Shown here piece by piece: positions 4,301-20,299 of a DNA stretch of 64,000 nt; position 1 is the first letter of the stretch; each line of letters starts with the position of its first letter. Below the pieces are notes generated by a model. The model saw only the letters and a program-made list of their open reading frames with translations, searched no databases and was not told the DNA's origin. This DNA comes from Verrucomicrobiia bacterium (GTDB lineage Bacteria; Verrucomicrobiota; Verrucomicrobiia; Palsa-1439): contig JAJVHY010000001.1 of the NCBI GenBank assembly GCA_022072455.1, positions 76,990 to 140,989 on the forward strand. The letters run 5' to 3'. The position numbers and the translations under genes were made by a program.

Positions 4301-5301
4301 TCGCCGCGCAAATTCCACGTGGTGTTCGCCAGGACGGTCACCGAGTTGTTTGTCGCGCCAAACAGCGCGTTGCCATTATTGCCAATGTTAAGACCGCTGC
4401 TCCAGAGGTTGGCGTTGGTGACAACCATGGAGTTGTCACTGCCCCCACCTTTGCCGACGTTGACTGCGCCGTTGGAGACGGTGACCGCCGCGCCACTACC
4501 GCCGACGGTGTAATAGTTGTTACTGGCACCGGGCGCATTGCCGATCGTGATCGCCCCGCTTTGGAAGCTGCTGCCATCGCGAATCACCAACCCATTGCCG
4601 CGGGAGGCCCCGCTATTGCCGATCGTCACCGCCCCAATATTGGTGACGTTCGCCCCGGCCGTGATGGTTAAGCTATTCCCGGTAGCGGCCCCGGTGCCGA
4701 TGGTCAGCGCTTGATTGTTCAGTGACCAAACTCCGCCCAGACCGGGTCCGCTGAGGCTGCTGACGGTGGCATTGACGTTGGAGCTGCCATTGCCAATGGT
4801 CAATGCGCCCCCACTGAAAAGTTGACCGCCCTCGTTGAGGTAAATCGCGCCGTTGTTGCCGAGCCACGTGAACGAGGTGATGCCGGTGACCACACCGCCA
4901 TTGTCAACCTGCAACCGGCCGCCACTGCCCATCACGAAAGTGGTGTTCGTCAGGATTACGCCGGTCCCAGCCGTGTTATTCGTGACGATCAACCACGCGG
5001 CACCCAGCGCATTGGAAATGGCCAGTGTGCTGATTGTGGCTGTCAGCGACGAATCAAGAATGGTGGCAGCCGAGCCGCTAAACTGATTGGTCAGATAAGC
5101 CGCGTCAATACCAGCACTGCCGGGATAGGTGCTGACCGGTTGCCCCCAGAGAATGCCATTGGTCCAATACCCGGTCGAATCCGCGACGGTGTTTGTCCAA
5201 CTATAGGAAACCGCCTGCACTGGCAGCGCAAGAGCGAACATCGCCCCACAAATCAGCGCGAGTATCAAGCGACGTGTCCGCTGTAAATAAGTCTTCAACA
5301 T
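1360..5301 (-). CDS. Giant secreted beta-helical repeat protein with a C-terminal PEP-CTERM sorting signal (putative exosortase substrate; adhesin-like).
   Basis: The track ORF is 1360..5337. The likely start is the internal Met at 5299-5301 (MLKTYLQRTRRLILALICGAMFALALPVQA reads as a signal peptide). It has hundreds of Gly/Thr/Asn/Ser-rich beta-strand repeats. The C-terminus is ...DYDYNGNQIAVILIPEPATVGLVGFGLAVLLGIARRRKRV, i.e. PEP motif, TM helix and Arg cluster. Confidence 0.85.
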   Translation of the reverse strand: MLKTYLQRTRRLILALICGAMFALALPVQAVSYSWTNTVADSTGYWTNGILWGQPVSTYPGSAGIDAAYLTNQFSGSAATILDSSLTATISTLAISNALGAAWLIVTNNTAGTGVILTNTTFVMGSGGRLQVDNGGVVTGITSFTWLGNNGAIYLNEGGQLFSGGALTIGNGSSNVNATVSSLSGPGLGGVWSLNNQALTIGTGAATGNSLTITAGANVTNIGAVTIGNSGASRGNGLVIRDGSSFQSGAITIGNAPGASNNYYTVGGSGAAVTVSNGAVNVGKGGGSDNSMVVTNANLWSSGLNIGNNGNALFGATNNSVTVLANTTWNLRGDLATFLVIGSDGLTAISNSLTVNGGVMSNIYWASVGGGTGGGAQNGSYSSLLITNGGVVAMRDSGAGTFNLGFGAGSNNTLTVTGTGSVLKSSAAFSTAFTVGYGSGISNQMTIADGGSVLMRSGTSQVGAFGGSNTVLVTDPGSVWSNALHGGGAGAGYGFGVGSGGTRGNSIIISNSGALVTVGGTGANDGIMIVGGSGGQSNRVIVTGSGSVWSNANVWGSSLYIGSSGGAKYNSVTIEDGGRYFANSPVIVGNSSGANSNSLTLGSAGLASTLTTSNQYGIAAMSIGAAAGASYNTMTITNATLKNQSGGSAGTSYIGNGGSSNRVLVTANGMWDLGGFYAIVIGNGATAHSNSLTVTGGGILTNSGQISLSGVNGALVVSDGGHVVATQLRYSGTNTILVTDPNSTLTGGLASISAGASLVISNQAKVYLTSIYPGYFDTSSTGPNGSILVTGAGSQLTGTALWLGLSSSSNYVTVADNAGLTASYTVLGAGGGGVYYDNELIVTGGAVVTNTGNSGGYAIRMGDTGTVIGDNVLVSNGGKVINLTSGTGLGSSSVNSSNNSVLVTGSGSVFSNGGTVVVGVLGKANSVTVADSAEFFAGNLTVGNGSAATGNQLLVSNATAYVAGVTVGALAGANSNSVLVKDGGVLQATGLTIGAGTTGNTISNRNATYQFTAAPTITSQVPGDIAITDGTISFRATGVANVTNTVANQISKIRFAGANTFQLNNASNTAAAVSQTYTFDTVAGSPSNYVRLVMVNGPTAYANASGADITIGSAGTFLASNTVAAIAGNFTNNGLAEIVAATADFQSGLHVAGTLTLRSGVVTGAGAKTIAGTLRGTGSVVGNTTIAGNLTPGLSIGTLVFSNDLTLTGTYQAEFGDGGNDQLIVVGDLTLAGATLDLTAVGGVTGETYVIASYGNLFGTFSVTNGLPVGYTVDYDYNGNQIAVILIPEPATVGLVGFGLAVLLGIARRRKRV
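1435..1953. repeat. 519-bp segment that is nucleotide-identical to 5452..5970 (copy A; 3' coding end of PEP-CTERM gene 1).
   Basis: Direct line-by-line comparison of the two regions shows no mismatch (offset 4017 bp). This also explains the identical spurious plus-strand ORFs 1694..2002 and 5711..5974. Confidence 0.9.
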
Positions 5302-5373
5302 CTGTTGTGTCTCCCTCTCCTCATGACCGCACCTCAATCGGAACAGGACAATACCCCGCCCAACAACACAAGT

Positions 5374-8300
5374 CTACACCCGCATCCGCCGGAAATGACA
5401 AAATATCCCGAGCACGACAAGCCCCAGGACGACCAAAGCCAGCGCACCGGGTTCGGGGATCAGAATCACGGCGATTTGGTTCCCGTTATAGTCATAATCG
5501 ACCGTGTACCCCACCGGCAGGCCATTGGTCACACTGAACGTTCCAAACAAGTTGCCGTAACTCGCAATCACGTACGTCTCCCCCGTCACACCACCGACCG
5601 CCGTCAAATCCAGTGTGGCCCCCGCCAAAGTCAAGTCGCCCACGACGATCAGTTGATCGTTGCCGCCATCGCCGAACTCCGCTTGATACGTCCCGGTCAG
5701 CGTCAGATCGTTGCTGAACACCAACGTCCCGATGCTCAACCCCGGCGTCAGATTGCCGGCGATGGTGGTGTTGCCCACCACGCTCCCAGTCCCGCGCAAC
5801 GTGCCGGCAATCGTCTTCGCGCCCGCGCCGGTCACCACCCCGCTTCGCAGCGTCAACGTCCCGGCCACGTGCAATCCGCTCTGGAAATCCGCCGTCGCGG
5901 CCACGATCTCGGCCAGACCGTTGTTGGTGAAGTTGCCCGCGATCGCCGCGACCGTGTTGCTGGCGAGGAACTGACCACCCGCCCCAATCGTCACGCCGCC
6001 GTTCCGATATGCCGTGTGCCCGTTGACCATCTCCAACCGCGCGTAATTCGTCGCGCCCAAACCGGTATCGAATGTGTAGGACTGTCCAAACAACGTCGTG
6101 TTCGATGCCGCATTGAGCCGAAACGCATTTGCGCCGGCAAAGCTGATGTTCGAGAGTTGATTGCCACCGCCCCAGTTGGCGTAGACGTTGGCGTTGGTGA
6201 TCGCGCGGAAACTGATGACGCCATCGGTCAGCGCAATCTGGCCGGCCCCGTTGGGCGCAACGGTCGGCGCGTTGGTCGTGAACTGGAACGTGCCGGCAAG
6301 GTTGCTGATGGTGTTGCCGGTACTGCCAAAGAAATTACTCAACAAGTTGGCTTCGAGCAGACCGCCCGACACCAACAATGAGTTCCCCACCGCGCCGGCG
6401 CTGCCGACGACAACGTTGCTGCCATAATACGCGGCCCCGGCATTCACGAGAAGTTGGTTATCGGTCGCACCGTTCGCGCCAACGGTCGTCACGCGCACAT
6501 TCGTAACAACCACGCCGGAACCGAGGGTGAACAGATTGGATTGCGCCAAACCGTTGCCGACCGCGATATTACCGGCGCGGAGATTCCAGAGGACTGCGCC
6601 TTGCGCCGCGACAGCGTTGTTCGACGAACCACTGCCGACCTGCAAGCCCCCGGTCGCCAGCAACGCATTGGATGCCGTCAGCGAATTCTGGCTGCCGCCT
6701 AACGCGCCGATGGTCAACAGCGCGACGTTGGAGAACACGCTGACGGTCTCGCCGCCGATCACTTGCAAACTGTTGTTACTCGCGCTCCGCCCCGTGCCCA
6801 CCGTCACGGCACCAATGCCAATATAGGCGCCGCCGTTGGCGATCGTCAGCCGATTGCCGATGGTGTTGGTCATCCCAATGATGAATGTGCCGGTATTGGT
6901 CACCACCGAGCCGGCATCGGTCACGGTAACCGAGTTGTACCGGTTCACCGGGCCGGTACTGGTGCCGGTATTGGTGTAGCCATTACCAGCGAGGATGCCG
7001 CCGGTCTGCCACAAGCCGCCATTGGTGACGATGACTTGCATGTAGTTGTTGTTCGAGAACGCCGGGTTGCCGGATTCGCCGCCCAGGAACGCCATGCCGG
7101 TATTGATCCAGCGCGAACCGGGATCGGTCACGGTGATGGTGTTGCTGTTGACGCCGTAGAGCGGATTGGCGCCGGCCCGGCGGCCCATGTACGTATCAGT
7201 GCTGAAGACAGCGCCGCCATTTTCAATCAGTAACTTGCTTCGGGCACTGGCCCCGTTTACGCCCAAGCCGAGTTGCAGACTGCGGTCGCCGGTCACCCGC
7301 AGCACCGAATCGGTGCCGGTCACAATCGTGAACGCGCCGTCGCCCCGATCGCCGATCAGATAACCGCCATTGACGACCGAGCCGGCGAACAACACGCCGC
7401 CGTTACTGACAATCACCCCGCTGCCGCCATCAATTCCAAACTGGAAGTACCACTGCGTATTTGCAAAGTAATTCGACCAGACCGAGCCGGCCCCACTCAC
7501 GAGCGCAGTGACCGTGTTGGCAGCCGTGCTGCCCAGCATGACGGCCTTCGCGACGAGTTGACCGCTGTTGAGCACGTCGAGCCGTGCGCCGTTGCCGGTA
7601 AGATTGAGGTTGCTGGCGTTGGTGAAGACTGAACCGGGGCCGTCCACGAGAATTCTGCCATTGGCACCGACCGAAGCATTGCCGGTGGTGCTGTTAAAAA
7701 GTTTCGCGCCGTTGCTGACGACAATCGAGCCTCCCGCGCCGATGGCGAATGAACTTAAGCTGCTGGCAGTGGTCGCCACCAGGTTGGAACCGCCGAGCAT
7801 CACCCACTGGCCGCCGACGGTGAACGACCGATTCGACGCCACCAGAATCTGCGCCGCCAACGCCGTTGGCGCGTTGCTGGTGATCAACGTGCCGGCGTTG
7901 AAGTTGAAATGCGAGTTAGTGACCCCACCCGCGACGTTGTTGGTCACCAGCAGTTGATCCACTGCCAGCGTGCTGCCGGCATTCAGCGTCAACGTCCCCA
8001 ACCCGGTCGCCCCCACCACCAACCGCGCCGTGGTGGCCGCGTTGGTCACGGTTAATGCGGCCCCGCTGTCCAACTGCAACGCACCCACACCGCCGATCCA
8101 CACGTCGTCGGACGCCGTATTCACAAACGCGCCATTGCCCACCACGAGGGTGCCGTTGAGGCTCGTCACCCCGGCCTGTGTGTTCGTCAATCCATTCCGC
8201 ACCACGACCAGCCCGCCGGCAAACGCCAACTGCGCGCCGATATCGAGTGTGACCCCCTCGTTAAAGACCAGTGCCGCGCCCGGCCCGGCTCGGAACAAGC

Positions 8301-9420
8301 CCGCCCCCGAGACCGGCCCCGCCAACACCAACCGCGCCGCATTCGTCGCCAGCATCAACCCGTCGTTGACGATCCCGGTCGCCGCCACGACGAACACCCC
8401 GGTATTCGTCGCGACCACCGTCCCGTCATTCCGAAACGCGCCGGCCGTGACCTGATTGGTCCCGACCGCGCTCGTGCTCTCCCCGACCAACTGCCCGGCA
8501 TTGATCACATCTCCGGCCGTCGTCAACCAGTTCCGCAACCCGCCGCTGCTGCTCGTGTTCACCAGATAAATCGTGCCGGCGCTATTATTCGTGACCGCCG
8601 CCCCCGCGCCGCTGCCGGTCACACTCAAAATGTTCGTCACCCCCACTGCCGTCGTCGCATTGGAGATCGTGACCAGGCCGGCATTGACCAACTGGTTGGA
8701 AAAAACAGCGACGCGCGTATTGTTCGCGACGCCCCCGGCCACAAACGTGTGGATGGTCCCGGTATTGTAGAACGCATTCAAGCCACCGGCACCCGTGCCC
8801 ACCTGCACCACCAACCCGGTATCCCCCGCCGCTCCGGCATTGCTCAACAAAAACCGGATCGTCCCGGCATTGGTGACTTGCCGGCTGCTCGACCCGCTCG
8901 CCAACAGCAACCGCGCAAACCCACTCGCCGCGCCGTTGGTGATGTACGTCTCCGCCCCGTTGACGAATTCCCCCGCCACGTTCAACGTGCTCACCCCGGT
9001 GCCGCTGTTGAAACTCAGCGCCGCGTTGTCCACCATCGTCAGCGCGCCGTTCGAAAACGTGCCCACCGATCCCTGTGTGCCGATTCCAAACTGCACCACC
9101 GAATTGCTCCCCAACCAAGTCGCCCCCGTCACCCGGTACACATTGTTACTCAACAACAACGTGTGCTTCACGTTACCGGCAACACTGTTGGAAATGACGA
9201 GCGTGGCGTTCGTCGTCGTCAGCATGTTGTTGGTGATGATGATGAACGCAGAAATCGCGTTGGTGATGAACACATCATCCGCCGCCGTCGGCACCGAGCC
9301 CAATGACCAAGCCGTCGCGGTATTGCTGTAAAGCCGACTGACCGTACCCGTCCAAGAATTATTGCCAAGAACCGCCGGTGTGAACAGAACCGCCGCCACA
9401 AGTCCAAGAAGATAACGCAT
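5374..9420 (-). CDS. Giant secreted beta-helical repeat protein with a C-terminal PEP-CTERM sorting signal. Tandem paralog of 1360..5301.
   Basis: N-terminal signal peptide MRYLLGLVAAVLFTPAVLG. Same repeat architecture as the upstream paralog. The C-terminus ...IPEPGALALVVLGLVVLGIFCHFRRMRV is a PEP-CTERM. The last ~330 aa are near-identical to the paralog. Confidence 0.85.
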   Translation of the reverse strand: MRYLLGLVAAVLFTPAVLGNNSWTGTVSRLYSNTATAWSLGSVPTAADDVFITNAISAFIIITNNMLTTTNATLVISNSVAGNVKHTLLLSNNVYRVTGATWLGSNSVVQFGIGTQGSVGTFSNGALTMVDNAALSFNSGTGVSTLNVAGEFVNGAETYITNGAASGFARLLLASGSSSRQVTNAGTIRFLLSNAGAAGDTGLVVQVGTGAGGLNAFYNTGTIHTFVAGGVANNTRVAVFSNQLVNAGLVTISNATTAVGVTNILSVTGSGAGAAVTNNSAGTIYLVNTSSSGGLRNWLTTAGDVINAGQLVGESTSAVGTNQVTAGAFRNDGTVVATNTGVFVVAATGIVNDGLMLATNAARLVLAGPVSGAGLFRAGPGAALVFNEGVTLDIGAQLAFAGGLVVVRNGLTNTQAGVTSLNGTLVVGNGAFVNTASDDVWIGGVGALQLDSGAALTVTNAATTARLVVGATGLGTLTLNAGSTLAVDQLLVTNNVAGGVTNSHFNFNAGTLITSNAPTALAAQILVASNRSFTVGGQWVMLGGSNLVATTASSLSSFAIGAGGSIVVSNGAKLFNSTTGNASVGANGRILVDGPGSVFTNASNLNLTGNGARLDVLNSGQLVAKAVMLGSTAANTVTALVSGAGSVWSNYFANTQWYFQFGIDGGSGVIVSNGGVLFAGSVVNGGYLIGDRGDGAFTIVTGTDSVLRVTGDRSLQLGLGVNGASARSKLLIENGGAVFSTDTYMGRRAGANPLYGVNSNTITVTDPGSRWINTGMAFLGGESGNPAFSNNNYMQVIVTNGGLWQTGGILAGNGYTNTGTSTGPVNRYNSVTVTDAGSVVTNTGTFIIGMTNTIGNRLTIANGGAYIGIGAVTVGTGRSASNNSLQVIGGETVSVFSNVALLTIGALGGSQNSLTASNALLATGGLQVGSGSSNNAVAAQGAVLWNLRAGNIAVGNGLAQSNLFTLGSGVVVTNVRVTTVGANGATDNQLLVNAGAAYYGSNVVVGSAGAVGNSLLVSGGLLEANLLSNFFGSTGNTISNLAGTFQFTTNAPTVAPNGAGQIALTDGVISFRAITNANVYANWGGGNQLSNISFAGANAFRLNAASNTTLFGQSYTFDTGLGATNYARLEMVNGHTAYRNGGVTIGAGGQFLASNTVAAIAGNFTNNGLAEIVAATADFQSGLHVAGTLTLRSGVVTGAGAKTIAGTLRGTGSVVGNTTIAGNLTPGLSIGTLVFSNDLTLTGTYQAEFGDGGNDQLIVVGDLTLAGATLDLTAVGGVTGETYVIASYGNLFGTFSVTNGLPVGYTVDYDYNGNQIAVILIPEPGALALVVLGLVVLGIFCHFRRMRV
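5452..5970. repeat. 519-bp segment that is nucleotide-identical to 1435..1953 (copy B; 3' coding end of PEP-CTERM gene 2).
   Basis: Same comparison as copy A. The copies diverge immediately outside these coordinates (ccggttcgggg vs ccgggttcgggg on the left; gaaggtgcc vs gaactgacc on the right). Confidence 0.9.
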
Positions 9421-9762: not shown

Positions 9763-10469
9763 TTAAGGCGCTAAGCGCGTTGTGGTAGGCCACCGGAAAA
9801 TCAAGGCCAATCCGACTCCGGCAATCACCCCGCCGGCATGAGCGACGTTGTCAATTCGCGGTTCCAACCCGCCGATCACCAAGTCCGCCAGCACGATCAG
9901 ACCCAACACCCGCAACAAGTGCCGGCGCGCCGCAGCCAAGATCGCTCCGCGCAACCGGTACACCGTCACCCCAAACGCGCCGACCAGTCCAAATACCCCG
10001 CCACTCGCGCCACCGCCAACCGCGCCTGCATCGCCGCGCCGAGTGTGCCCCAGGATTCGACGCCCTCGTAAAACGCAATCGCCGCCGGCCACTGTTGCGT
10101 CCCGGTCAACGACCACAACCGCCACAAACGGATCTCACCACGCAACGCCCCCGGCACCTCCGCCGTGTCGGGCGGCTCCGCGGCGCCGCACCGCGCCACG
10201 CGACGCCACCGTTGCGCCGCCGGTAACCGTCCGGCTTTTGCACACCGCACCGCTTGCCGGTTGGCGAGCCGGGGCAACACGATCAGGACCAGAAACAAAC
10301 CCCACGCCCACGCCGCAGCACCGGTAAACAACGCCGCCACTGCCGCCACGAACACGACGAGATGCCGGAGAATCGGCACGACCAACCAGCGCGACGCTTC
10401 GCGCAGCAGCAGCAGTGCCGGCAACGCCGTCAGGATCACCAACGGATAGACCCAAAGCCGGTCGGTCAC
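9763..10469 (-). pseudogene. Rhomboid-family intramembrane serine protease, apparently split by a frameshift (real or a sequencing artefact).
   Basis: ORF 9763..10125 (-) carries the catalytic GxSG motif (GGGASGGVFGLVGAFG) and the His motif (NVAHAGGVIAGVGLALIF) about 51 residues apart, i.e. TM4-TM6 of a rhomboid. The overlapping ORF 9966..10469 (-) in another frame encodes hydrophobic helices of TM1-TM2 type. Their combined length (~235 aa) equals a normal rhomboid core. Only 2 bp separate its start from the upstream L,D-transpeptidase stop. Confidence 0.4.
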
Positions 10470-10927: not shown

Positions 10928-11205
10928 GACAACCGGTCAATCTGTGCCGCCAACTCGAAATCTTTCTGCGTCAATCCCCCGGCGCTGTGGGTCGTCAGGA
11001 TGATTTTGACGTGTTTGTACCGGGACAACTGCACGTCGGGATGATGATCCAGCGCGTCGGCGACCGGCGCGAGTTTCGCGATGAATTGCGTCGCCGCAGT
11101 GAACCCGGCAAAGACGAATTCCTTCGTGATGGTGTTGCCCTCGCGCGTCCAAGTGCCGAGACGCCCGGCGATTTCGGCGTCGGAGAGTTGGGGCGAGGTT
11201 GTCAC
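10924..11205 (-). CDS. phhB: Pterin-4-alpha-carbinolamine dehydratase (4a-hydroxytetrahydrobiopterin dehydratase, PCD/DCoH family).
   Basis: PCD signature ...EFVFAGFTAATQFIAKLAPVADALDHHPDVQLSRYKHVKIILTTHSAGGLT. The track ORF (to 11325) has a low-complexity N-terminal extension. GTG at 11203-11205 overlaps the upstream TGA (GTGA) and is the more plausible start (~93 aa). Confidence 0.7.
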   Translation of the reverse strand: MTTSPQLSDAEIAGRLGTWTREGNTITKEFVFAGFTAATQFIAKLAPVADALDHHPDVQLSRYKHVKIILTTHSAGGLTQKDFELAAQIDRLS

Positions 11206-12188
11206 GGCGCGAGTTTGCGGTCGAGGGCCGGGATGGGATTGATTTGGCGTTCCGTCTCGACGGGGGGCGCGGGGACTGGGACCGGCGCGCTGGAGCCGAC
11301 CATCGGCCGGTTGGACTTGAGCCACGCCGCCGCCGCCAGGCGGATTTGGAGGACCGCGAGCGGTTGCGGTGAGACGCCATGGTTGAAATAGATCGTCGCG
11401 TCCACCCGGTAATTGTCATCACTCCAAACCAGCAGCCGGCGCTGGGCAAAGGCCGCGAGTTTTTTGGCGACGGAATCATTGCCCAACCCCAACCCACCCA
11501 AACCCGCTGTGGAGTTTTCGGGGCCGGCATCGCGTTGATCGGTGGGCGGACCAAATTGCGCCTCCAACTGCGTCTGCACGGTGGCCAGTGGAACGAGCCG
11601 TTCGCGCATCACCAAGGTGAAATCCTTGAGGACGCCATCGTAAAAATGCGCCGTGAGACGCTGGATCTCATCCGCCGGATGCGCGACGTAAATTTCCGGC
11701 TGCATCCCGCGGGTGTTCTGCAACACCAGATTGAAGCGGTGCTCCAATTCGTCACGGCGCGTCTCAAGGCGGATGCCGGCAAATTGAACCAGTTCGGTTG
11801 CCACCGCCTGATCGGGATTGAAGATCGGCGCCGCGGACTTGGAGTGGTTGTTGGTCGGCACCGGCAACGATTGGGCGTCGTCCGTCAGATAAATCGGCGT
11901 GCGTTCAAACGGTTCGCTGACCAGGTAGAACCAGAATGGCGAGAACAAGGCCAGCCCCAGAATAATCCCCGCCGTATACAGCACCGGCCGGGGAATCGGA
12001 TCGAACACCCGCTGCAAGGCGTGCCGGTGTTTCTTGTGCAATACCTCGTCCGCCTCCTCCTCCAGGCGCCGGTGCGATTGCTTGGGCAACAACATCATGA
12101 CGCCACACTTGGGACACTGCACCTCTTTCAACGGTCCCACGGACGGAACAGTCAGATGCGCCTGGCAATTTTTACAGCGAAGTTCCAT
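11202..12188 (-). CDS. Zinc-ribbon (CxxC...CxxC) membrane-anchored protein of unknown function.
   Basis: The track ORF 11202..12902 has a ~238-aa N-terminal extension that overlaps the divergent FHA gene and looks like a GC-rich artefact. The internal Met at 12186-12188 gives MELRCKNCQAHLTVPSVGPLKEVQCPKCGVMMLLP (zinc ribbon), then one TM helix (LYTAGIILGLALFSPFWFYLV) and a ~250-aa extracytoplasmic domain. Confidence 0.5.
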   Translation of the reverse strand: MELRCKNCQAHLTVPSVGPLKEVQCPKCGVMMLLPKQSHRRLEEEADEVLHKKHRHALQRVFDPIPRPVLYTAGIILGLALFSPFWFYLVSEPFERTPIYLTDDAQSLPVPTNNHSKSAAPIFNPDQAVATELVQFAGIRLETRRDELEHRFNLVLQNTRGMQPEIYVAHPADEIQRLTAHFYDGVLKDFTLVMRERLVPLATVQTQLEAQFGPPTDQRDAGPENSTAGLGGLGLGNDSVAKKLAAFAQRRLLVWSDDNYRVDATIYFNHGVSPQPLAVLQIRLAAAAWLKSNRPMVGSSAPVPVPAPPVETERQINPIPALDRKLAP

Positions 12189-12263
12189 CGGGCCGCCAGT
12201 GTACCGACCCGCCGGCAAAAATCCACGTGAAATCTTCGCCAATGTGCTACACTCCGCCCCGGC
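12189..12263. promoter_or_regulatory. Divergent promoter region between the zinc-ribbon operon (-) and the FHA/kinase operon (+).
   Basis: 75-bp non-coding gap between divergent start codons. No motif was scored; this is positional inference only. Confidence 0.3.
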
Positions 12264-13154
12264 ATGTATCGGCTGACTTTTCAGTCCCGCGACGCAACCC
12301 GCGCCCCGTTCACCGGCGACGCGGCCCCCGTCACCATTGGCCGCGCGGCCGGCTGCACCCTCCAACTCACCGCGGCCGGCCTCCACGACCACCACGCGAC
12401 CCTCGACCGCCGGGCCGACGGCTATTACCTCCGCGACCTTGTTGGCAGTCGCACCGTCCGCGTCAACGATCAGGCGATCAACGACCACCGGCTCAGCAGC
12501 GGTGACGAGATCGAGATCGGCGCTGTCCGCATGCACTTTCACATCATCCACGACACCCCCGGCAGCCGCCGCGCGTTCGACATCTGGCAAGCCGTGGCCG
12601 GCGCTGCCGTGCTCCTCCTGGTGCTCGGTCAAATCGGGTTCTTGGGCTGGATCTTCGCGCAACCGCATCCGCGCAACATGAAACTCGACATCGTCAAAGG
12701 CAAACAAGCCAAAGCCCTGAACGCCGCCCCGGTCGTCCCGCCGCCCACTGAGCCGGTCCCGCTTGCACCACTCGTCCCGCTCACCCCCGCTCCCGCCGTT
12801 GCCGCCCCACCGCCTGTCTTGAACCGGCAACTCAAAATCACCCGCGTTGACCGCGTGGAAGGCCGCGCCGACGTCACGTGGCGCATCCAAATCAAAGCCC
12901 AAGTCCGCGACCGGCAGCTCGATTCATCCGCCGTCCAGATCATCGTCCACTGCTACTCCGCGGGAAACCAGTTGATCGCCACACAGGAAGCGCCGCGCCC
13001 AGCCGCGTGGGAAAATTTCTCCAGCAAACAAATCCCGGTCCGCGTCAACCTCGCCCCAGCCCGCTGCGCCGGCTGCGTGGTGCGCACGTACTACCGGCAA
13101 CAATTACAGGACATCTGGGCGTCGGCGCCAGCACTGGCGACACCCGCCCCGTAA
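12264..13154 (+). CDS. FHA-domain protein with a central TM segment and a Pro/Ala-rich linker.
   Basis: N-terminal FHA signature (VTIGRAAGCTLQL...HATLDRRADGYYLRDLVGSRTVRVNDQAI...LSSGDEIEIGAVRMHF), then a TM helix (AVAGAAVLLLVLGQIGFLGWIF) and a PPPTEPVPLAPLVP linker. Confidence 0.75.
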   Translation: MYRLTFQSRDATRAPFTGDAAPVTIGRAAGCTLQLTAAGLHDHHATLDRRADGYYLRDLVGSRTVRVNDQAINDHRLSSGDEIEIGAVRMHFHIIHDTPGSRRAFDIWQAVAGAAVLLLVLGQIGFLGWIFAQPHPRNMKLDIVKGKQAKALNAAPVVPPPTEPVPLAPLVPLTPAPAVAAPPPVLNRQLKITRVDRVEGRADVTWRIQIKAQVRDRQLDSSAVQIIVHCYSAGNQLIATQEAPRPAAWENFSSKQIPVRVNLAPARCAGCVVRTYYRQQLQDIWASAPALATPAP

Positions 13155-13161
13155 CAATCTT

Positions 13162-14604
13162 ATGGCCGAAAACCTCGTTGGTCGGACTCTGGGTGCCTAT
13201 CAGATCGAAGCCGAAATCGGCGTCAGCCGGTGGGGCGGTGTTTACCGGGCCACCCAAAGCTCGATGAACCGCACCGTCGCCCTCAAGACCGTCTCCGCCG
13301 AAATGGCCGCTGTCTCGGGCCGCACCACGCATTTCCTCGAAGAAATGCAGGCCGCCGCCCAGATCTCCCACAGCAACATCGTCACCATCTACGAAGCCGG
13401 CTGCATCGACGGCATCAACTTCTGCGCGATGGAATACATCAACGGCCCCGCCCTCGCCGATTTCCTCCGCAACGGCAAAGTTGTCGACGAACAACACCTC
13501 CTCCAAACCATACACAGCGTCGCCCGCGCCCTCGATTTCCTCTGGCAAAAGAAAATCCCCCACCAACCCCTCGAAGCCAAAAATATCCTCGTGGACGCCC
13601 GCGGCACTGTCAAACTCATCAACGTCCTCCCCCTCGACAACATGCCGGTCGAATCCATGAAAGACGATATGCTCACCGTCGGCCTCGTCCTCGCCAACCT
13701 CGCCAACAGCATCAGCCCCGTCACCAAACGCACTGGCGAACTCGTCGAACGCATGGTCGCCGCCGCCGGCCGCAAACCCTTCATCTCCCTGGCCGATCTC
13801 GCCCAAACCGCCGCCGACCTCGAACGCGAACTCTTCCCGCCGCCGTCCGCGGCCGGAGCCGCCACCCCCGCGCCCGAGAAAAAGATCAACAAAGTCGGCC
13901 TCGTCCTCGCCATCCTCGTCGGCATCGCTTCGGCCAGCGGATTGTATTGGTGGCGCACCGCCGCCCTCCGCCAACCCCCACCGGTCACCCGGCCCGCCGA
14001 CTTCGGCACCATGGCCCGCGTTCCCGGCGGCACCGTCGGCAAAAAGAACGTCAAAGACTTCTTCCTCGACCGCTACCCGGTCACCATCGGCGACTACAAA
14101 ATATTCCTCGACGCCGTCACCGCCGGCGTCACCCTCAAGGAACACACCTTTGCCCCCCGCAAAAAAAATCACACTCCCGACAACTGGGACAAAATCCTCG
14201 CGGGCATCCAACAGGGCCGCCCCTTGGATGTCGGCAATCGCCAGCTCTGGCTCACGTGGGATTCCCCGGTCATCGGCGTGGATTGGTACGACGCCTACGC
14301 CTACGCCAACTGGCGCGGCAAGCGGTTGCCCAGTGACGAAGAATGGGACCGCGCCACCCGGCAATCCACTCAGACACCCGCGCCGGCCCCCACCAATCAA
14401 ACCGAAGTCTACGCCAACCCGGCCGATAAAAGTCCGGACGGCATCAGCGGACTCACCGGCAAACTCAGCCAATGGATCGGCACCTCCCCGACCCATTCCA
14501 CCGCCATCATCCGCGGCGGCAGACAATCCCGCACCGAAATCAACCGCGAAACCCGGTCCGACACCGTCGGATTCCGTTGCGCGGCGGACAAAGAAGTCAA
14601 GTAA
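13162..14604 (+). CDS. Ser/Thr protein-kinase-like domain (degenerate; predicted pseudokinase), TM helix, and C-terminal FGE-sulfatase (formylglycine-generating-enzyme-like) domain.
   Basis: Kinase subdomains are recognisable (G-rich loop IGVSRWGGVY, VALK, HSNIVTIYEAG) but the catalytic loop reads HQPLEAKNILVD instead of HRDxxxxN, and no DFG is found. TM helix VGLVLAILVGIASASGLYWW. The C-terminal FGE domain has ...GVDWYDAYAYANWRGKRLPSDEEWDRA...GFRCA. Confidence 0.75.
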   Translation: MAENLVGRTLGAYQIEAEIGVSRWGGVYRATQSSMNRTVALKTVSAEMAAVSGRTTHFLEEMQAAAQISHSNIVTIYEAGCIDGINFCAMEYINGPALADFLRNGKVVDEQHLLQTIHSVARALDFLWQKKIPHQPLEAKNILVDARGTVKLINVLPLDNMPVESMKDDMLTVGLVLANLANSISPVTKRTGELVERMVAAAGRKPFISLADLAQTAADLERELFPPPSAAGAATPAPEKKINKVGLVLAILVGIASASGLYWWRTAALRQPPPVTRPADFGTMARVPGGTVGKKNVKDFFLDRYPVTIGDYKIFLDAVTAGVTLKEHTFAPRKKNHTPDNWDKILAGIQQGRPLDVGNRQLWLTWDSPVIGVDWYDAYAYANWRGKRLPSDEEWDRATRQSTQTPAPAPTNQTEVYANPADKSPDGISGLTGKLSQWIGTSPTHSTAIIRGGRQSRTEINRETRSDTVGFRCAADKEVK

Positions 14605-14691
14605 CGGCCAAAATTGTCGCGCCAAATCTCAGCTTTGCGCGACCTGCCCAGCGCCGGCTGACCGGGCACACCCAGTGCTCACCTAGACGAC

Positions 14692-15063
14692 ATGCACCAT
14701 ATCAAAATCGTCACCCAGCGGCACCGCGACAGCGAAATCATCCATGTGACTGGCGGTCTGGACGACACCAACTTTGCCAACCTGGCCGGTCTGCTCACCA
14801 CCCATCTCCGAGACGGACGGCGCACCGGCGCAGTCCCGCAATTTGTGGTTGAGTGCAGCGAAGTCAACTACATCGGCAGCGTCGAACTCAAAGCCCTCCT
14901 CGATCTCGCGCACATCGCCCGCTCCCACGGTGGCGACATCAAACTCGCCCACCTCGCCCCGACCATCGAACAAGTCGCCAACCTCATCGCCAACGGCGAC
15001 CCCCTCGAATGTCACCCCGACGTCAACACCGCCCTTGCCGCCTTCGAACAAGTCCCGGCGTAA
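14692..15063 (+). CDS. STAS-domain protein (anti-sigma-factor antagonist, SpoIIAA-like).
   Basis: 123 aa with the STAS pattern (IHVTGGLDDTNFANLAGLL...FVVECSEVNYIGSVELKALLDLAHIARSHGGDIKLAHL). Confidence 0.65.
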   Translation: MHHIKIVTQRHRDSEIIHVTGGLDDTNFANLAGLLTTHLRDGRRTGAVPQFVVECSEVNYIGSVELKALLDLAHIARSHGGDIKLAHLAPTIEQVANLIANGDPLECHPDVNTALAAFEQVPA

Positions 15064-15066
15064 TCG

Positions 15067-16074
15067 TTACCGGTACGTCAACAACTCAACCCACTCCCGG
15101 CCGCTCACACTCAACCGCCACCCGCTGCCGGCGCGTTCGAGCAGTTGCCGGCAGGCGGTGCTTTCTGCCACCGCGCCATCCACGCGCTGTAAAACCGGTT
15201 GGCCGCGCTGCAATTGCCGCTGCGCCGCGGCGCCAATCTCCTCCGCCGACCGCGGCCACACCGCCACCGGCATCCCCCAACCCGTCACCGCCACTTCATA
15301 TGCGACTGGCGCGGCCTGATTGCCGCGCAATTGTTCCGGATGCCTCTCGACCCACCGGAGCGGGCGCGCCCCAACCAACACCGTAAACGCCACCGGCTGG
15401 CGCGCCACATACTCCGCGAAATTCAACTTTCGATTCGCCGCGTACGCCCGCAAAAATGCCGCGGGATCCAGTCCCACCAAATTCCGCCCATTAAAATTCC
15501 CAAACGGCGGCGCCTTGGGATCGCGTTTCGCGTACCACGCGCGAAAATTCGGATTCAACATCAGATTGATCTCGAAGTGCAAATGCGCCCGGTCCGGCGT
15601 GATGCCTTCCTTGGTATTCGTCGACCGTCCCACCCGGCCGAGCACCTGCCCCTTTTGCACCGACTGCCCAACGGCCAACCCGCCGGCCACATCCCGCAGA
15701 TGCGCGTACAACGTGAAAACTTCCACCCCATCCCACACATGCTCCAGCACCACATACCGGCCGTAATTTGAGAGACCGGGTTTGCTGTTGATGAACGCCA
15801 CCGTACCCTCGCCCACCGCGTGGACTGGGTCAATGGATTCACCGCGCGCATCGCGCTGCAAACATTTGATGTCAATCCCCTCGTGAAACCGCCGGCCGCC
15901 CCGGCGGACACACCCAAACGAACCGGACTCGACGGTGCCTTCGACGGTCGGCTGATAAAAATCCGCGTCCCGCCCCCGCAGCAACGCGTCATTGGCCGTC
16001 GGCAGACACAAATCCACCGCTCCCGCGTGAGTCGCGCTCACCAGCAACAGAATGACCCAGCCCCCGATCTTCAC
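15067..16074 (-). CDS. M23-family metallopeptidase (LytM-like peptidoglycan endopeptidase), secreted.
   Basis: Signal peptide MKIGGWVILLLVSATHAGA. M23 motifs FHEGIDI, YGRYVVLEH and TPDRAHLHFEI. GTG start overlaps the upstream stop (GTGA at 16071-16074). Confidence 0.8.
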   Translation of the reverse strand: MKIGGWVILLLVSATHAGAVDLCLPTANDALLRGRDADFYQPTVEGTVESGSFGCVRRGGRRFHEGIDIKCLQRDARGESIDPVHAVGEGTVAFINSKPGLSNYGRYVVLEHVWDGVEVFTLYAHLRDVAGGLAVGQSVQKGQVLGRVGRSTNTKEGITPDRAHLHFEINLMLNPNFRAWYAKRDPKAPPFGNFNGRNLVGLDPAAFLRAYAANRKLNFAEYVARQPVAFTVLVGARPLRWVERHPEQLRGNQAAPVAYEVAVTGWGMPVAVWPRSAEEIGAAAQRQLQRGQPVLQRVDGAVAESTACRQLLERAGSGWRLSVSGREWVELLTYR

Positions 16075-16553
16075 GGCCGCAATCGCACATCTCCGGTATC
16101 GCGGGGCCGCCCGGCCAACTTATTCAACGCCGCCACCACTTCCTTCGTCACCTCTTCGGGCATGTGGCCCACGAACACCAACCGGCCATCCAAAATGGCG
16201 CGCTCCACCTCCACTGTTGCCGCGATCTTGTCGTCCACCAGCACGGCCAGCATTTGCCCGCGCAACCGCAACGTCACCTCCGCGAGCTTCGACCGACCGG
16301 GGACATCAAATTGCACGATCACGGTGTTCCCTTCGGGCGATACTTCGAGCCACGCCGCGTCAACATCGCGTTCGCTGAGGCTCGGGTAGGGGTTGATTGA
16401 GAGAGGCAACCCGGTTTCTGGTGCCCGGACAGTTCGCGCCCAAGCCGTCGGTAGATTCCCCGGCACTTGTTCATGAATCCGGAGCGTGTGCACCGGCCCC
16501 GCGCACCCCGTCAACGCCGCCGCTGCCAAAAATAAAAAAATAAATCGCCGCAT
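16071..16553 (-). CDS. Lipoprotein of unknown function.
   Basis: Lipobox MRRFIFLFLAAAALTGCA. 160 aa. Translationally coupled to the downstream M23 peptidase. Confidence 0.5.
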   Translation of the reverse strand: MRRFIFLFLAAAALTGCAGPVHTLRIHEQVPGNLPTAWARTVRAPETGLPLSINPYPSLSERDVDAAWLEVSPEGNTVIVQFDVPGRSKLAEVTLRLRGQMLAVLVDDKIAATVEVERAILDGRLVFVGHMPEEVTKEVVAALNKLAGRPRDTGDVRLRP

Positions 16554-16642
16554 GCGCCCGCTCTTCTACGCCGGCCATTTCCTGAACGCAAGCAAACGAA
16601 ACACTCGCCATCCCGCGCGGGCTGTGCTACAAATTGCCGCAC

Positions 16643-19600
16643 ATGAAAGTGGATCCCCGTTTCCTCAAGGAGGAAGGCGCCGAGGTTTTCACCGGCAACG
16701 AATTGTTGATCAAAGGCGCTCTCGAAGTCGAGGGGGGGACGCATTTGCTCACCGGTTATCCCGGCTCGCCCGTGGCTGGCTTTTTCGACTCGATGGAATC
16801 CATCGCCGCCCTGCTCAAAGGCAAGGGCATCCGCGCTTGCATCGCCAACAACGAGGCTCTCGGCGCGGCCATGCTGAACGGCTCGCAAATGGGACCGCTG
16901 CGCGGCATTTGCGCGATGAAATCCGTCGGGCTCCACGTCGCGGCGGATGCGTTGGCGCTCGGCACGCTGGCCGGCGCGCATCCCGACGGCGGCGCGCTGG
17001 TAATTGTCGGCGACGATCCGTGGAGTGATTCCACCCAGGTTCCGGCCGATTCCCGGTATTTGTGTAAGCATATCTTCATGCCGGTCATGGAACCGGCCAC
17101 CAACCAGGAACTCAAAGACTGGATTGATCTCGGCTTCAAACTTTCGCGGGAAGCCAATGTCTTCATCGGCTACCTCGTCACCACCAATCAGGCTGACGGC
17201 GGCGGCAGTGTGTCGTGCCGGCGCAATCATTTTCCGGAACTCAACGCGATCAACAAGTTCAGCATTGATACCGCCGCGATTGATTTCGAACGCACCGTCC
17301 TCCTGCCGCCGCGCACTTGGCTGCGCGAACAAGGGATGCCGGAACGATTCAATCGCCTTTTCGCCAGCGCCCGCCGGCATGGCGTCAATCGCATAATCAA
17401 CGCCCGCGAAAATCCTCGCTGGCGCGCCGAGATCGGGTTCGTCGCCACCGGGCTGGGCTTCTCGTACCTCCAACACGCGCTCCACGAACTCGGCGTAGCC
17501 GACCAGGTACCCATTCTCAAACTCGGCATCAGTTATCCAATTGACCCGCAACTTGTCGAAGAATTTACCCAGCAAGTCCGCAGCATCTTCGTCGTCGAAG
17601 AACGCCGCGGGTTCATGGAAGAGCAGATCAGCGAGATCGTCAGCAAGCTGAACCAAAACGCCACGAGCGCCAATCGCACGAACGTCTGGGGCAAAGAATT
17701 CCCCGCCGGCCTCGCCGGCATCCCGGCGACGCGCGGGTTCAATCCGAGCATCCTGATTGAACGCCTCGCACCCCTCGGCAAGTTTTTCCACGACCCGAAT
17801 CTCAGTCTGAACGAAGCTCGCATCGAATGCGCCGTCGAACTCGTCCAGAAGACCGGGACGTTCGACATCCAGATTCCACCCCGCACGCCGACGTTCTGTC
17901 CCGGCTGTCCGCATCGTGACAGCGCGAGCGTGTTGATCGAGATGAAGAAGCAGTTCCGCGACGAGAAGTACATGCGGCGGGAACACAAGCGCGGGCCGGT
18001 CGATGTCGTGTTCCATGGCGATACCGGCTGCTACACGATGTTGATGTTCGAGCCGACCAAAGATCTGATGCACAATTATTCCGGCATGGGTCTCGGTGGC
18101 GGCACCGGGGCCGGCATCGATCCGTTCATCACGAACAAACAGGTCGTGTTTCTCGGGGACTCCACTTTCTTCCACTCCGGCATGCTCGGCATCTCGAATG
18201 CCTTGAAGCAAGGCCAGGACATCACCTACATCATCCTCGACAACGCCACGACCGCCATGACCGGCCATCAGCCCACCCCGTCGATGGACGTGGATATCGT
18301 CGGCGAGCCGACCTACAAGCAGGGCATTGACGGCATCGTCGAAGCGATGCTTGGGCAGGGCGTCCATGTCGTCCGCGCCAATCCCGCCTACCGGGAAACG
18401 TGGCGCGGGCTGCTCGAAGAAACCATTCTGCGTGACGGCGTGAAAGTAATCGTCGCCGACAAGGAATGTGGCATCACCTATCACCGGCGCGAGACCCGGC
18501 AGGAACGTCAGGAGATTCGCGAGAGCGGTTTCCTTCACGAGAAACGCTACGTCAACGTCAACCCGGACGTCTGTGAACACTGCCTCGAATGCACGCTGGC
18601 GACCGGTTGCCCTGGCCTCACGTTTGTCGAGACGCCGTTCGGCGCGAAAGTGCAGACCGACCTGTCGTGGTGCGTGGCCGACACAGCCTGCACGAAGATT
18701 TACGCCTGCCCGTCCTTCGAGGAAATCACCATCGTCCGCACTCAGAAACCACCCGCGCCGATTGACTCGATTGACCTCAACAACTTGCCAGTGCCTCAAC
18801 CCCGGCAATTCGATGACGTGTGGCACTGTCATCTCGCCGGCGTCGGCGGCCAAGGCATCGGCGTCTGCACGGCGACGATTGTGCGCGCGGGTTTCAAGCA
18901 GGGCTACAACGTTTTATTCTGCGACAAGAAGGGGCTGGCGATTCGGAACGGCGGGGTTTTCTCGCAAGTCACCTTCACGAAGAACGGCAGCCATGCCTCC
19001 GTGCTGATCCCGTACGGCCAAGCCGATCTTGTCATCGGTGTGGACCCGCTCGAAGCCTGCCGGAGCCTCGACCCGAAGGGCAACCTCCGCGTCGGCTCAC
19101 CGGAACGCACCAGCGCAGTCGTCAATTCATTCAAGACCCCGACGATCCTCACGCTCCTTGGTAAAGATAATTTCAACGTCGCCGAAGTCGAAGCGACGAT
19201 CCAGAAGTACACCCGCCCCGACGACTACTTCGGCCTCAACGTCGCTGGCATCAGCGAGCATTTCTTCGGCACGAAGCTCTACGCCAACGTCGTCATGCTC
19301 GGCATCGCGTTCCAACGCGGCCTGCTCCCGATCTCGCTCGATAACATCGAGTGGGGCTTGCGCGAAACCATGGGCAGCGCTGCCGCCGACAATCTCAAGG
19401 CGTTGTCGCTTGGCCGCAAACTCGTCCTCGAACCCGACCTCGCCCACAAACACGAGTTGCACGAGACATACGAAGAATTCGTCAGCGAACGCATGGACGT
19501 CCTCAAGCGCAACCACCGCTGGGGCCGCCGCTGGGCGCTCGATTTCGCCCAACTCGTCCGCCGCAGCGAGCAGAACATCAAGCTCGGCGACCAAACCGCC

Positions 19601-20299
19601 CGCGACCTCGTCTGGCGTTTGTACGACTTGGTTGAATTCGGCACCGGCGACTTCGCGAAGCAATACCTCGACCTTGTTGAAAAAGTGTATGCACAGGATT
19701 CAGCCGACCGGGATTACGCCGCGACCAAGGCCGTCATCTGGAATTTGCACAAGGCGATGATCATCAAAGACGAGGTCTACGTCGCCCACCTCTTAACGAG
19801 CGAAGAAAAGACCCGCCGCGACAACCACCGCTACCACGTCGATGCCAAGCGCGGCGACAAAATCATCTACCACCACATCAACCGGCCCGAATTCAACATC
19901 CTCGGCCGCGATATCCGGTTCAAGATGAGCCCGGAGAAGTGGCAGTTTAATCTACTGAAACACATGCGCTGGCTCCGGAAGTGGATGCCCGCCTGGCACC
20001 GCCGCGAACGCGAATTCCGCGACTGGTACATCGGCTTGGTGGAAAACTTCGTGCAATCAGCGATCAGCCATCAGCCGTCAGCCAACGCCGAAGCCGAACG
20101 AAGTGAGACACGGTCCTCCGCAACCCGAGAGCAGACAGCCGAAAGCTATAGCCGCTGGACAGCGGCGCTCCGCTGCGTCGAGCCGGTCAAAGGCTACCGC
20201 GAAGTCCGGTATCCGAAGATGGAAGAAGCGAAGCGGAAGGTGGAGACGTTGTTGAATTCAAACACTCCGGCCACGACAAAACAGTCCGTGCTTGTCTAG
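16643..20299 (+). CDS. Indolepyruvate:ferredoxin oxidoreductase family protein (fused alpha/beta 2-oxoacid:ferredoxin oxidoreductase).
   Basis: ~1218 aa. The IOR N-terminus reads MKVDPRFLKEEGAEVFTGNELLIKGALEVEGG...TGYPGSP (the track ORF starts at TTG 16634; ATG 16643 is preferred). It has a TPP-binding region, a ferredoxin-like Cys cluster (CEHCLECTLATGCPG) and a C-terminal beta-like domain. The long antisense ORF 16511..18853 is judged an artefact. Confidence 0.85.
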   Translation: MKVDPRFLKEEGAEVFTGNELLIKGALEVEGGTHLLTGYPGSPVAGFFDSMESIAALLKGKGIRACIANNEALGAAMLNGSQMGPLRGICAMKSVGLHVAADALALGTLAGAHPDGGALVIVGDDPWSDSTQVPADSRYLCKHIFMPVMEPATNQELKDWIDLGFKLSREANVFIGYLVTTNQADGGGSVSCRRNHFPELNAINKFSIDTAAIDFERTVLLPPRTWLREQGMPERFNRLFASARRHGVNRIINARENPRWRAEIGFVATGLGFSYLQHALHELGVADQVPILKLGISYPIDPQLVEEFTQQVRSIFVVEERRGFMEEQISEIVSKLNQNATSANRTNVWGKEFPAGLAGIPATRGFNPSILIERLAPLGKFFHDPNLSLNEARIECAVELVQKTGTFDIQIPPRTPTFCPGCPHRDSASVLIEMKKQFRDEKYMRREHKRGPVDVVFHGDTGCYTMLMFEPTKDLMHNYSGMGLGGGTGAGIDPFITNKQVVFLGDSTFFHSGMLGISNALKQGQDITYIILDNATTAMTGHQPTPSMDVDIVGEPTYKQGIDGIVEAMLGQGVHVVRANPAYRETWRGLLEETILRDGVKVIVADKECGITYHRRETRQERQEIRESGFLHEKRYVNVNPDVCEHCLECTLATGCPGLTFVETPFGAKVQTDLSWCVADTACTKIYACPSFEEITIVRTQKPPAPIDSIDLNNLPVPQPRQFDDVWHCHLAGVGGQGIGVCTATIVRAGFKQGYNVLFCDKKGLAIRNGGVFSQVTFTKNGSHASVLIPYGQADLVIGVDPLEACRSLDPKGNLRVGSPERTSAVVNSFKTPTILTLLGKDNFNVAEVEATIQKYTRPDDYFGLNVAGISEHFFGTKLYANVVMLGIAFQRGLLPISLDNIEWGLRETMGSAAADNLKALSLGRKLVLEPDLAHKHELHETYEEFVSERMDVLKRNHRWGRRWALDFAQLVRRSEQNIKLGDQTARDLVWRLYDLVEFGTGDFAKQYLDLVEKVYAQDSADRDYAATKAVIWNLHKAMIIKDEVYVAHLLTSEEKTRRDNHRYHVDAKRGDKIIYHHINRPEFNILGRDIRFKMSPEKWQFNLLKHMRWLRKWMPAWHRREREFRDWYIGLVENFVQSAISHQPSANAEAERSETRSSATREQTAESYSRWTAALRCVEPVKGYREVRYPKMEEAKRKVETLLNSNTPATTKQSVLV

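Follow-up and report, generated by a model that had tools for sequence, protein, structure and literature searches.

A pseudokinase with an FGE-like ectodomain and an adjacent FHA protein as a candidate inner-membrane scaffold of Verrucomicrobiota

What role can a kinase-like domain play in a bacterial membrane once its catalytic residues are gone, and which of the proteins encoded next to it share that role? The question is raised by a locus in a 64,000-nucleotide stretch from a Verrucomicrobiia bacterium (contig JAJVHY010000001.1, positions 76,990 to 140,989, forward strand; hereafter the window), in which a gene for an FHA-domain protein is followed by a gene for a kinase-like protein with a C-terminal FGE-like domain and then by a gene for a STAS protein. 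The original prediction, made from the DNA alone, treated all three products as parts of a partner-switch signaling cluster, possibly tied to sulfatase maturation or to sensing of sulfated substrates. The present analysis delineates a different unit. The FHA protein and the pseudokinase most likely form a scaffold or signaling complex, and, on balance and with modest confidence, we favor the interpretation that this Verrucomicrobiota inner-membrane module is a phospho-independent scaffold that resembles the EssB/YukC-EssC pair or represents a variant of MviN-FhaA. The two core genes are as follows.

12264-13154, plus strand: bitopic FHA protein of 296 amino acids (aa), delineated with Pfam and hydropathy; FHA domain at aa 1-95 (nucleotides (nt) 12264-12548), transmembrane (TM) segment at aa 107-132 (nt 12582-12659; aa 103-134 by hydropathy), Pro-rich disordered linker at aa 136-185, periplasmic beta-sandwich at aa 190-290 (nt 12831-13133)
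13162-14604, plus strand: 480-aa bitopic pseudokinase bearing an FGE-like domain in the periplasm, delineated with Pfam, PDB and family alignments; pseudokinase domain at aa 8-228 (nt 13183-13845) with the catalytic-loop remnant HQPLEAKN (nt 13561-13584) and the DFG-equivalent NVL (nt 13621-13629), TM segment at aa 242-264 (nt 13885-13953), FGE-like domain at aa 278-476 (nt 13993-14589)

The pseudokinase, the FHA protein and their pairing

The three open reading frames of the original prediction were recovered at exactly the same coordinates (12264-13154, 13162-14604 and 14692-15063), and its description of the first two as an FHA membrane protein and, immediately downstream, a kinase-like membrane protein holds. 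The 296-aa protein matches the Pfam FHA profile (6.7e-12) and Yop-YscD_cpl (1.8e-8, above the cutoff of that profile), whereas the 480-aa protein matches Pkinase (1.3e-21), with the similarity confined to profile positions 1-140 of 263. Hydropathy analysis detects exactly one TM segment in each of these proteins as well as in a divergently encoded zinc-ribbon protein, and none in the STAS protein.

The pseudokinase belongs to a sharply bounded family of about 65 full-length relatives with 40-100% identity, of which 30 were aligned for a motif census. When aligned to solved kinases, among them PknB and PknA, the window protein has HQPLEAKN in the place of HRDxKxxN and N154 at the position of the DFG Asp; thus, in the window copy, HRD is replaced by HQP (P136), the Lys of HRDxK by Glu and DFG by NVL, with Asn in place of Asp, in agreement with the catalytic losses reported originally. 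The HRD Asp is present in none of the 30 family members, 26 of which have Pro in this position; the DFG Asp survives in four and is Asn in 24; and the beta3 Lys, which the window copy retains as K42 along with E61, is found in 18, with R or Q in the remainder. The glycine loop takes the form GxSxWG, in which W24-G25 is invariant throughout the family, as are His134 and the alphaF-like Asp169. The similarity of the family profile to solved kinases ends around position 166-182, so that no activation segment or APE motif aligns, which suggests a kinase fold with a reduced C-lobe that lacks the activation loop and, judging from the sequence alignment, the G-helix. Judging from these substitutions, the domain is predicted to be catalytically dead, and the loss of catalysis appears to be ancestral to the family. 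The HRD Asp, the DFG Asp and an alignable activation segment with its APE motif are all missing from the window copy, contrary to what defines an active Hanks-type kinase.

Bacterial pseudokinases have been little studied, and a 2025 atlas and review name only seven families. Among the published families that could be compared by motif or taxonomy, we found no match to the window family. Membership in the proteobacterial GLW family, which has HRD replaced by GLW and the beta3 Lys by Leu or Trp (PMC12599244), was ruled out because the window family has H-Q/x-P and K/R/Q, respectively, at these positions; the ActPs1-3 families come from actinobacteria, and the descriptions of CP1 and DLHK place them in cyanobacteria or proteobacteria. 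A role in a known defense system was also considered and rejected: PADLOC returned only generic matches to the kinase N-lobe (PD-T4-6 and Mad6; aa 10-153), and neither the FHA protein nor the STAS and zinc-ribbon proteins had a match.

The pairing of the pseudokinase with the FHA protein is strict. Gene neighborhoods were surveyed at four annotated loci (L002-L005), one genome locus and 80 metagenome loci, among which L001-L033 carry family members and L034-L085 carry ordinary kinases that served as controls. At 32 of 32 family loci, the gene immediately preceding that of the pseudokinase encodes an FHA protein, with spacing from a 4-nt overlap to a gap of about 35 nt (7 nt between stop and start codons in the window); the same holds for only one of the 52 control loci. 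The functional tie between the two proteins that had originally been proposed is thus borne out by their adjacency.

A search of the PDB with the single FHA-domain sequence yielded no match, and the family profile was required to identify its best solved relative, FhaA of M. tuberculosis (2e-10); the matches include 3OUN, the complex of FhaA with the intracellular domain of Rv3910 (MviN). Canonical FHA domains contact phosphothreonine through an Arg, a Ser and an Asn (R70, S85 and N107 of Rad53). Across 25-26 orthologues of the window protein, Gly26, Arg27, His44 and Asn68 are invariant; the canonical Ser is present in 13 of 26 and the canonical Asn in 9 of 26, being replaced in the window copy by H41 and R63, and the full set of Arg, Ser/Thr and Asn is found in only 3 of 25. 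The phosphothreonine pocket thus seems to be degenerate. The retention of the invariant residues and of the gene pairing, together with the variability of the pocket residues, suggests selection on the fold and the pairing rather than on a canonical phosphopeptide pocket.

We propose that the core of the module consists of two translationally coupled single-pass proteins, the FHA protein and the pseudokinase, in which the dead kinase domain would serve as a docking scaffold for the FHA domain, most likely without phosphothreonine, as in EssB/YukC-EssC. The periplasmic domains could bind envelope ligands or proteins, and the complex would thereby couple a periplasmic event to protein assembly in the cytoplasm, with an output that is presumably related to the envelope. 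The precedent is provided by YukC, a pseudokinase that binds the FHA domains of YukB without phosphorylation, those FHA domains lacking the phosphothreonine-binding residues (PMC9600267). Similarly to the window protein, EssB/YukC is a single-pass protein with an N-terminal cytoplasmic pseudokinase domain and an extracytoplasmic C-terminal domain (PMC9600267), and in both cases the pseudokinase is apparently paired with an FHA domain devoid of the residue set for phosphothreonine binding. The differences are also substantial. Unlike EssC/YukB, in which the FHA domains belong to an FtsK/SpoIIIE ATPase, the window FHA domain resides on its own 296-aa single-pass protein; unlike the type VIIb secretion loci of Bacillota, neither the window nor L002-L005 contains WXG100 or Ess genes, and the ectodomain is FGE-like; and the host phylum of the window module, Verrucomicrobiota, is diderm, with a pseudokinase that, unlike EssB/YukC, still scores as Pfam Pkinase. 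If this interpretation is correct, the pair would be a third independent example of docking between an FHA domain and a pseudokinase, after MviN-FhaA and EssB-EssC, and the first in a diderm phylum, and would offer a concrete, testable case for how dead kinases signal in bacteria.

The main rival to the scaffold reading is a phosphorylation-dependent switch of the MviN-FhaA type, in which an active Hanks kinase whose gene lies outside this locus would phosphorylate the pseudokinase, or its juxtamembrane tail, at a Thr; the FHA domain would then bind the phosphothreonine and turn an envelope process such as cell-wall synthesis on or off. MviN (Rv3910; ActPs3) is a pseudokinase anchored in the membrane, its activation loop is attenuated, and it has an extracytoplasmic binding domain and an FHA partner, all of which are reminiscent of the window module; MviN recruits FhaA after phosphorylation by PknB. 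The relationship of the FHA profile to FhaA, the invariance of Arg27 and the presence of M23 peptidase and YkuD L,D-transpeptidase genes nearby in the window and at some of the related loci are likewise in line with such a switch. However, recruitment of FhaA depends on phosphorylation of the MviN tail, whereas no Thr or Ser is found among the invariant or nearly invariant residues of the cytoplasmic part of the window pseudokinase family. Furthermore, the pocket Ser and Asn are not maintained, no active kinase or PP2C phosphatase is encoded within the window, and the MurJ lipid II flippase, to which MviN is fused, is neither fused nor adjacent to the window pseudokinase; unlike MviN and FhaA, the two window genes form an obligate adjacent pair. 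We regard a switch of this type as possible although unlikely.

Several observations weigh against the scaffold reading or limit it. Structurally, the FHA domain is nearest to the phospho-dependent actinobacterial FHA domains (GarA and FhaA) and not to YscD, and the Arg27 that it retains is the phosphate-contacting residue; moreover, a phospho-acceptor may sit in the poorly conserved juxtamembrane linker. Among family members that carry the FGE-like domain, the ectodomain is 53.5% identical compared with 51.7% for the pseudokinase domain, and such conservation implies that the ectodomain matters in these forms. The genes that flank the three-gene core (the FHA, pseudokinase and zinc-ribbon genes) differ between the annotated loci, and fold searches with the ectodomains of the FHA and zinc-ribbon proteins returned generic matches alone.

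Neighboring genes and the extent of the module

Three further features adjoin the core pair.

11202-12188, minus strand: zinc-ribbon membrane protein, denoted UpZn, 328 aa, divergent from the FHA gene; zinc ribbon at aa 1-33 (nt 12090-12188), TM segment at aa 69-91 (nt 11916-11984), periplasmic alpha+beta domain at aa 133-295 (nt 11304-11792)
12189-12263, no strand: divergent intergenic region of 75 bp between the zinc-ribbon and FHA genes
14692-15063, plus strand: STAS protein, single-domain and soluble, 123 aa (Pfam STAS, 5.8e-9)

The zinc-ribbon gene, which the original prediction had missed, occurs in the divergent position at 17 of 22 loci, with the absences confirmed by hidden Markov model searches. 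Its product has no Pfam match and combines an invariant CxxC...CxxC signature with a confidently modeled periplasmic domain in which the motif RFNLxLQNTRGMxPEIY is strongly conserved. In the public record, the start codon of this gene is placed 30 codons too far downstream, yielding 298 aa as opposed to 328 aa in the orthologues, and the invariant zinc ribbon is thereby cut off. From the synteny counts, the conserved unit comprises the FHA protein and the pseudokinase, often with the zinc-ribbon protein, which would be a frequent third, single-pass member of the complex.

Three single-pass proteins, each combining a small cytoplasmic adaptor with a periplasmic domain, could alternatively be structural subunits of a trans-envelope secretion or motility machine, in the manner of EssB-EssC, YscD or GltG/GltJ. 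In the gliding motor of Myxococcus, GltG is an FHA protein and GltJ a zinc-ribbon protein, both single-pass. The match to Yop-YscD_cpl, a weak match to NCBIfam GltG (4e-4) and the TonB-like layout of the FHA protein, with its TM segment, Pro-rich linker and C-terminal domain, all fit this possibility. Nevertheless, the GltG match scores 19 bits against a cutoff of 650, no Pfam TonB_C domain was detected in the FHA protein, and neither ATPase, secretin or WXG100 genes nor genes for other components of a machine were found beside the module in the window and the four annotated loci. We therefore consider such a machine quite improbable.

The original prediction correctly placed a STAS protein downstream, its Pfam score being 36.1 bits against a threshold of 22.6 (the TIGR00377 score of 37.1 bits is under the 53.45 cutoff), but the co-conservation on which it had staked the three-gene cluster is missing: a STAS gene is located downstream of the pseudokinase at only 5 of 24 testable loci. 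Wherever it is found, it is accompanied by a block of genes for an M23 peptidase and a SecDF-head lipoprotein. This M23/lipoprotein pair adjoins the module at 7 of 24 related loci, that is, more often than the STAS gene, and in L018, it directly adjoins the pseudokinase gene, with no STAS gene in between. In the window, the pair occupies 15067-16553 on the minus strand, and the lipoprotein carries a SecDF P1-head-like domain; a gap of 3 nt separates the end of the STAS gene from the convergent gene for the M23 peptidase.

These counts bear directly on the scheme in which the FHA protein, the pseudokinase-FGE protein and the STAS protein constitute a partner-switching cascade, with sulfatase maturation, or sensing of sulfated substrates by the FGE domain, as the input. 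The STAS gene starts 87 nt downstream of the pseudokinase stop codon on the same strand, without a terminator-like site in between; the Ser position of its phospho-acceptor (YIGS, nt 14869-14880) is present in 6 of 6 orthologues, with the preceding Asp lost; its adjacency to the pseudokinase recurs in deep branches (42-67% pseudokinase identity); and domains of the pFGE type are able to bind sulfatases (PMC7279497). Against this scheme, a Pfam survey of the approximately 40 open reading frames of the window identified no active Ser/Thr kinase, PP2C phosphatase, anti-sigma kinase of the RsbW/SpoIIAB type or sigma factor, so that the partner-switch components and the active kinase or phosphatase sought as a partner are missing there; nor is an HATPase_c anti-sigma kinase or PP2C partner present in L002-L005. 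The window is also not rich in sulfatase-type genes, contrary to the original description: the same survey found a single Sulfatase gene (30952-32229), 16 kb away, and no sulfatase adjoins the module at the four annotated loci. With the FGE-like domain, moreover, missing from 13 family loci that are interleaved with domain-bearing ones, a partner-switching or sulfatase-linked cascade appears very improbable. The STAS and sulfatase genes are outside the conserved unit, and, under the scaffold reading, the STAS protein would be a frequent neighbor by descent rather than a component. Of the originally proposed cluster, then, the FHA protein and the pseudokinase stand, and the STAS protein does not.

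No sigma-70-like promoter was detected in the 75-bp divergent region, a scan that may not cover the promoter type of this phylum; more generally, the scan for promoters and terminators yielded no promoter-like site, its terminator-like sites were no more common than in shuffled sequences, and it is no evidence either way on co-transcription. The gap between the pseudokinase and STAS genes contains a 7-bp inverted repeat (14616-14643; GTCGCGC ... GCGCGAC) with a 14-nt loop and no T tract, which could be a regulatory site or a chance occurrence.

The FGE-like ectodomain and a wider superfamily

The fusion of the kinase-like domain to an FGE-like domain is confirmed (FGE-sulfatase, PF03781, 1.6e-22), but the domain is not complete as first described: the match covers profile positions 29-144 of 255, and the window ectodomain is 199 aa long compared with about 222 aa in relatives, owing to three deletions that are shared with the closest relative. 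The family ectodomain profile matches the structures of SUMF2, CalU17 and FGE at 1e-17 to 3e-30, the best solved match being pFGE/SUMF2 (3.4e-30). FGE requires a Cys pair that binds Cu(I), whereas its paralogue pFGE binds sulfatases without catalysis (PMC7279497). When the FGE-like domain was checked for this Cu-binding pair, two Cys between RGG and GFRC were found in 0 of 27 family members, the window sequence being RGGRQSRTEINRETRSDTVGFRC. The window domain thus resembles pFGE/SUMF2, which retains the FGE fold, lacks the catalytic cysteines and functions through binding (PMC7279497); unlike pFGE, a soluble protein of the eukaryotic ER, it is periplasmic, borne by a bacterial transmembrane pseudokinase and further trimmed. 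The FGE-like domain is accordingly predicted to be a non-catalytic module outside the membrane, serving, in the proposed scaffold, as a binding module and not as an enzyme.

At 13 related loci, the pseudokinase occurs in a short form (about 270 aa) that stops once the TM helix is complete and lacks the FGE-like domain. The short form is not one half of a split gene because the gene that follows it in L004 has the reverse orientation. In a neighbor-joining tree of the pseudokinase domain, computed without bootstrap, short and long forms interleave in at least two clades, an arrangement that suggests repeated loss of the FGE-like domain in the family; the domain would thus be dispensable in many lineages.

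In public records, the 480-aa protein goes by the name 'Hercynine oxygenase'. Taken at face value, this name, along with 'SUMF1/EgtB/PvdO family nonheme iron enzyme' and the significant FGE-sulfatase match, would make the protein an EgtB; in the same vein, it could be a sulfatase-maturing FGE or an unusual active kinase. With the EgtB model TIGR03440, however, the protein reaches 53.9 bits, far from the cutoff of 360, and the match is confined to aa 296-439 in the FGE-like part; the N-terminus has a kinase fold instead of a DinB-like iron-binding domain; the Cys pair is absent; and each of the three catalytic residues of kinases is either lost or variable, with the activation segment missing. 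The sequence already contradicts an enzymatic function of any of these kinds, which we consider hardly credible, and the 'Hercynine oxygenase' annotation is wrong. Such misleading names, 'nonheme iron enzyme' included, would inflate the counts of ergothioneine and FGE enzymes in Verrucomicrobiota.

The window family is the FHA-in-trans branch of a large uncharacterized superfamily of pseudokinase-FGE-like proteins. An exhaustive search of 1.84 billion representatives with the family profile produced 12,717 matches at E<=1e-30. Beyond about ten representatives of the family itself, the best 150 of these 12,717 are mostly proteins of 560-1000 aa with N-terminal extensions, which match the kinase, TM and FGE regions end to end. 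Several combine Response_reg, DUF4388, a kinase-like domain and FGE-sulfatase (including P0163, P0164, P0165 and P0172), where DUF4388 corresponds to PATAN (bioRxiv 2021.06.11.447907), and their catalytic loops read HEE, HSP, HSL, HRR or FGP. Among 125 aligned representatives, the DFG Asp is replaced by Asn in 96 and the HRD Asp by Pro in 47, and the Lys and both Asp are all kept in 19. An FHA domain was detected in none of 146 representatives, and the two that carry organism names are both from Verrucomicrobiota. The REC-PATAN paralogues share with the window family the 'xWG' glycine loop, the dead catalytic loop, the DFG Asp-to-Asn replacement, the TM segment and the FGE-like ectodomain but, unlike it, carry their adaptors in cis, as N-terminal fusions, in place of an FHA domain supplied in trans.

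The profile search thus indicates that proteins in which a dead kinase is joined to an FGE fold are widespread and unstudied and that their cytoplasmic adaptors are interchangeable, and more than 100 clusters (at 50% identity) of pseudokinase-FGE proteins appear to be undescribed. Some bacterial Ser/Thr kinases, for example those of the 'Proteo1' architecture in the bSTK Atlas, similarly combine, in the same order, a kinase fold, a TM helix and an extracytoplasmic FGE-sulfatase domain; unlike these kinases, which are described as canonical and active, the window family and the >100 related clusters lack catalytic residues. The in cis fusion of REC and PATAN in the out-group relatives fits a scaffold that takes protein-interaction adaptors. 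A more far-reaching proposition, which is speculative and which we consider improbable, is that pseudokinase-TM-FGE-like proteins are an unrecognized class of receptor pseudokinases, in which a cue perceived by the ectodomain is relayed to swappable adaptors without phosphotransfer. The cue might be periplasmic, for example the CxPxR motifs of unmatured sulfatases or an envelope glycan, and the relay could proceed by conformational change or oligomerization, with FHA in trans and REC-PATAN in cis as the alternative recipients.

Other genes of the window

On the minus strand, the regions 1360-9420 and 55971-63560 encode three giant repeat proteins that are rich in Gly, Asn and Thr (1325, 1348 and 2529 aa); the first contains a PEP-CTERM-like sorting signal that falls just short of the Pfam cutoff, the second, whose C-terminal tail looks similar, has no Pfam match, and the third contains autotransporter PATR repeats. 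A 1221-aa fused protein resembling 2-oxoacid:ferredoxin oxidoreductase (TPP_enzyme_C, POR and DUF6537) is encoded at 16634-20299 on the plus strand. It is followed, at 23832-54157, by a long run of glycan and lipid hydrolase genes, mostly on the same strand, which includes GH1, a GH42-like protein with CBM4_9, a SASA esterase, GDSL lipases, ceramidase-like proteins, a BD-FAE esterase and one sulfatase, along with several open reading frames of 370-660 aa without a Pfam match. Finally, a 167-aa open reading frame at 9966-10469 on the minus strand, whose codon bias resembles that of a gene (GC3 0.81) and which lacks a Pfam match, lies directly downstream of the YkuD L,D-transpeptidase gene and overlaps its end by 4 nt.

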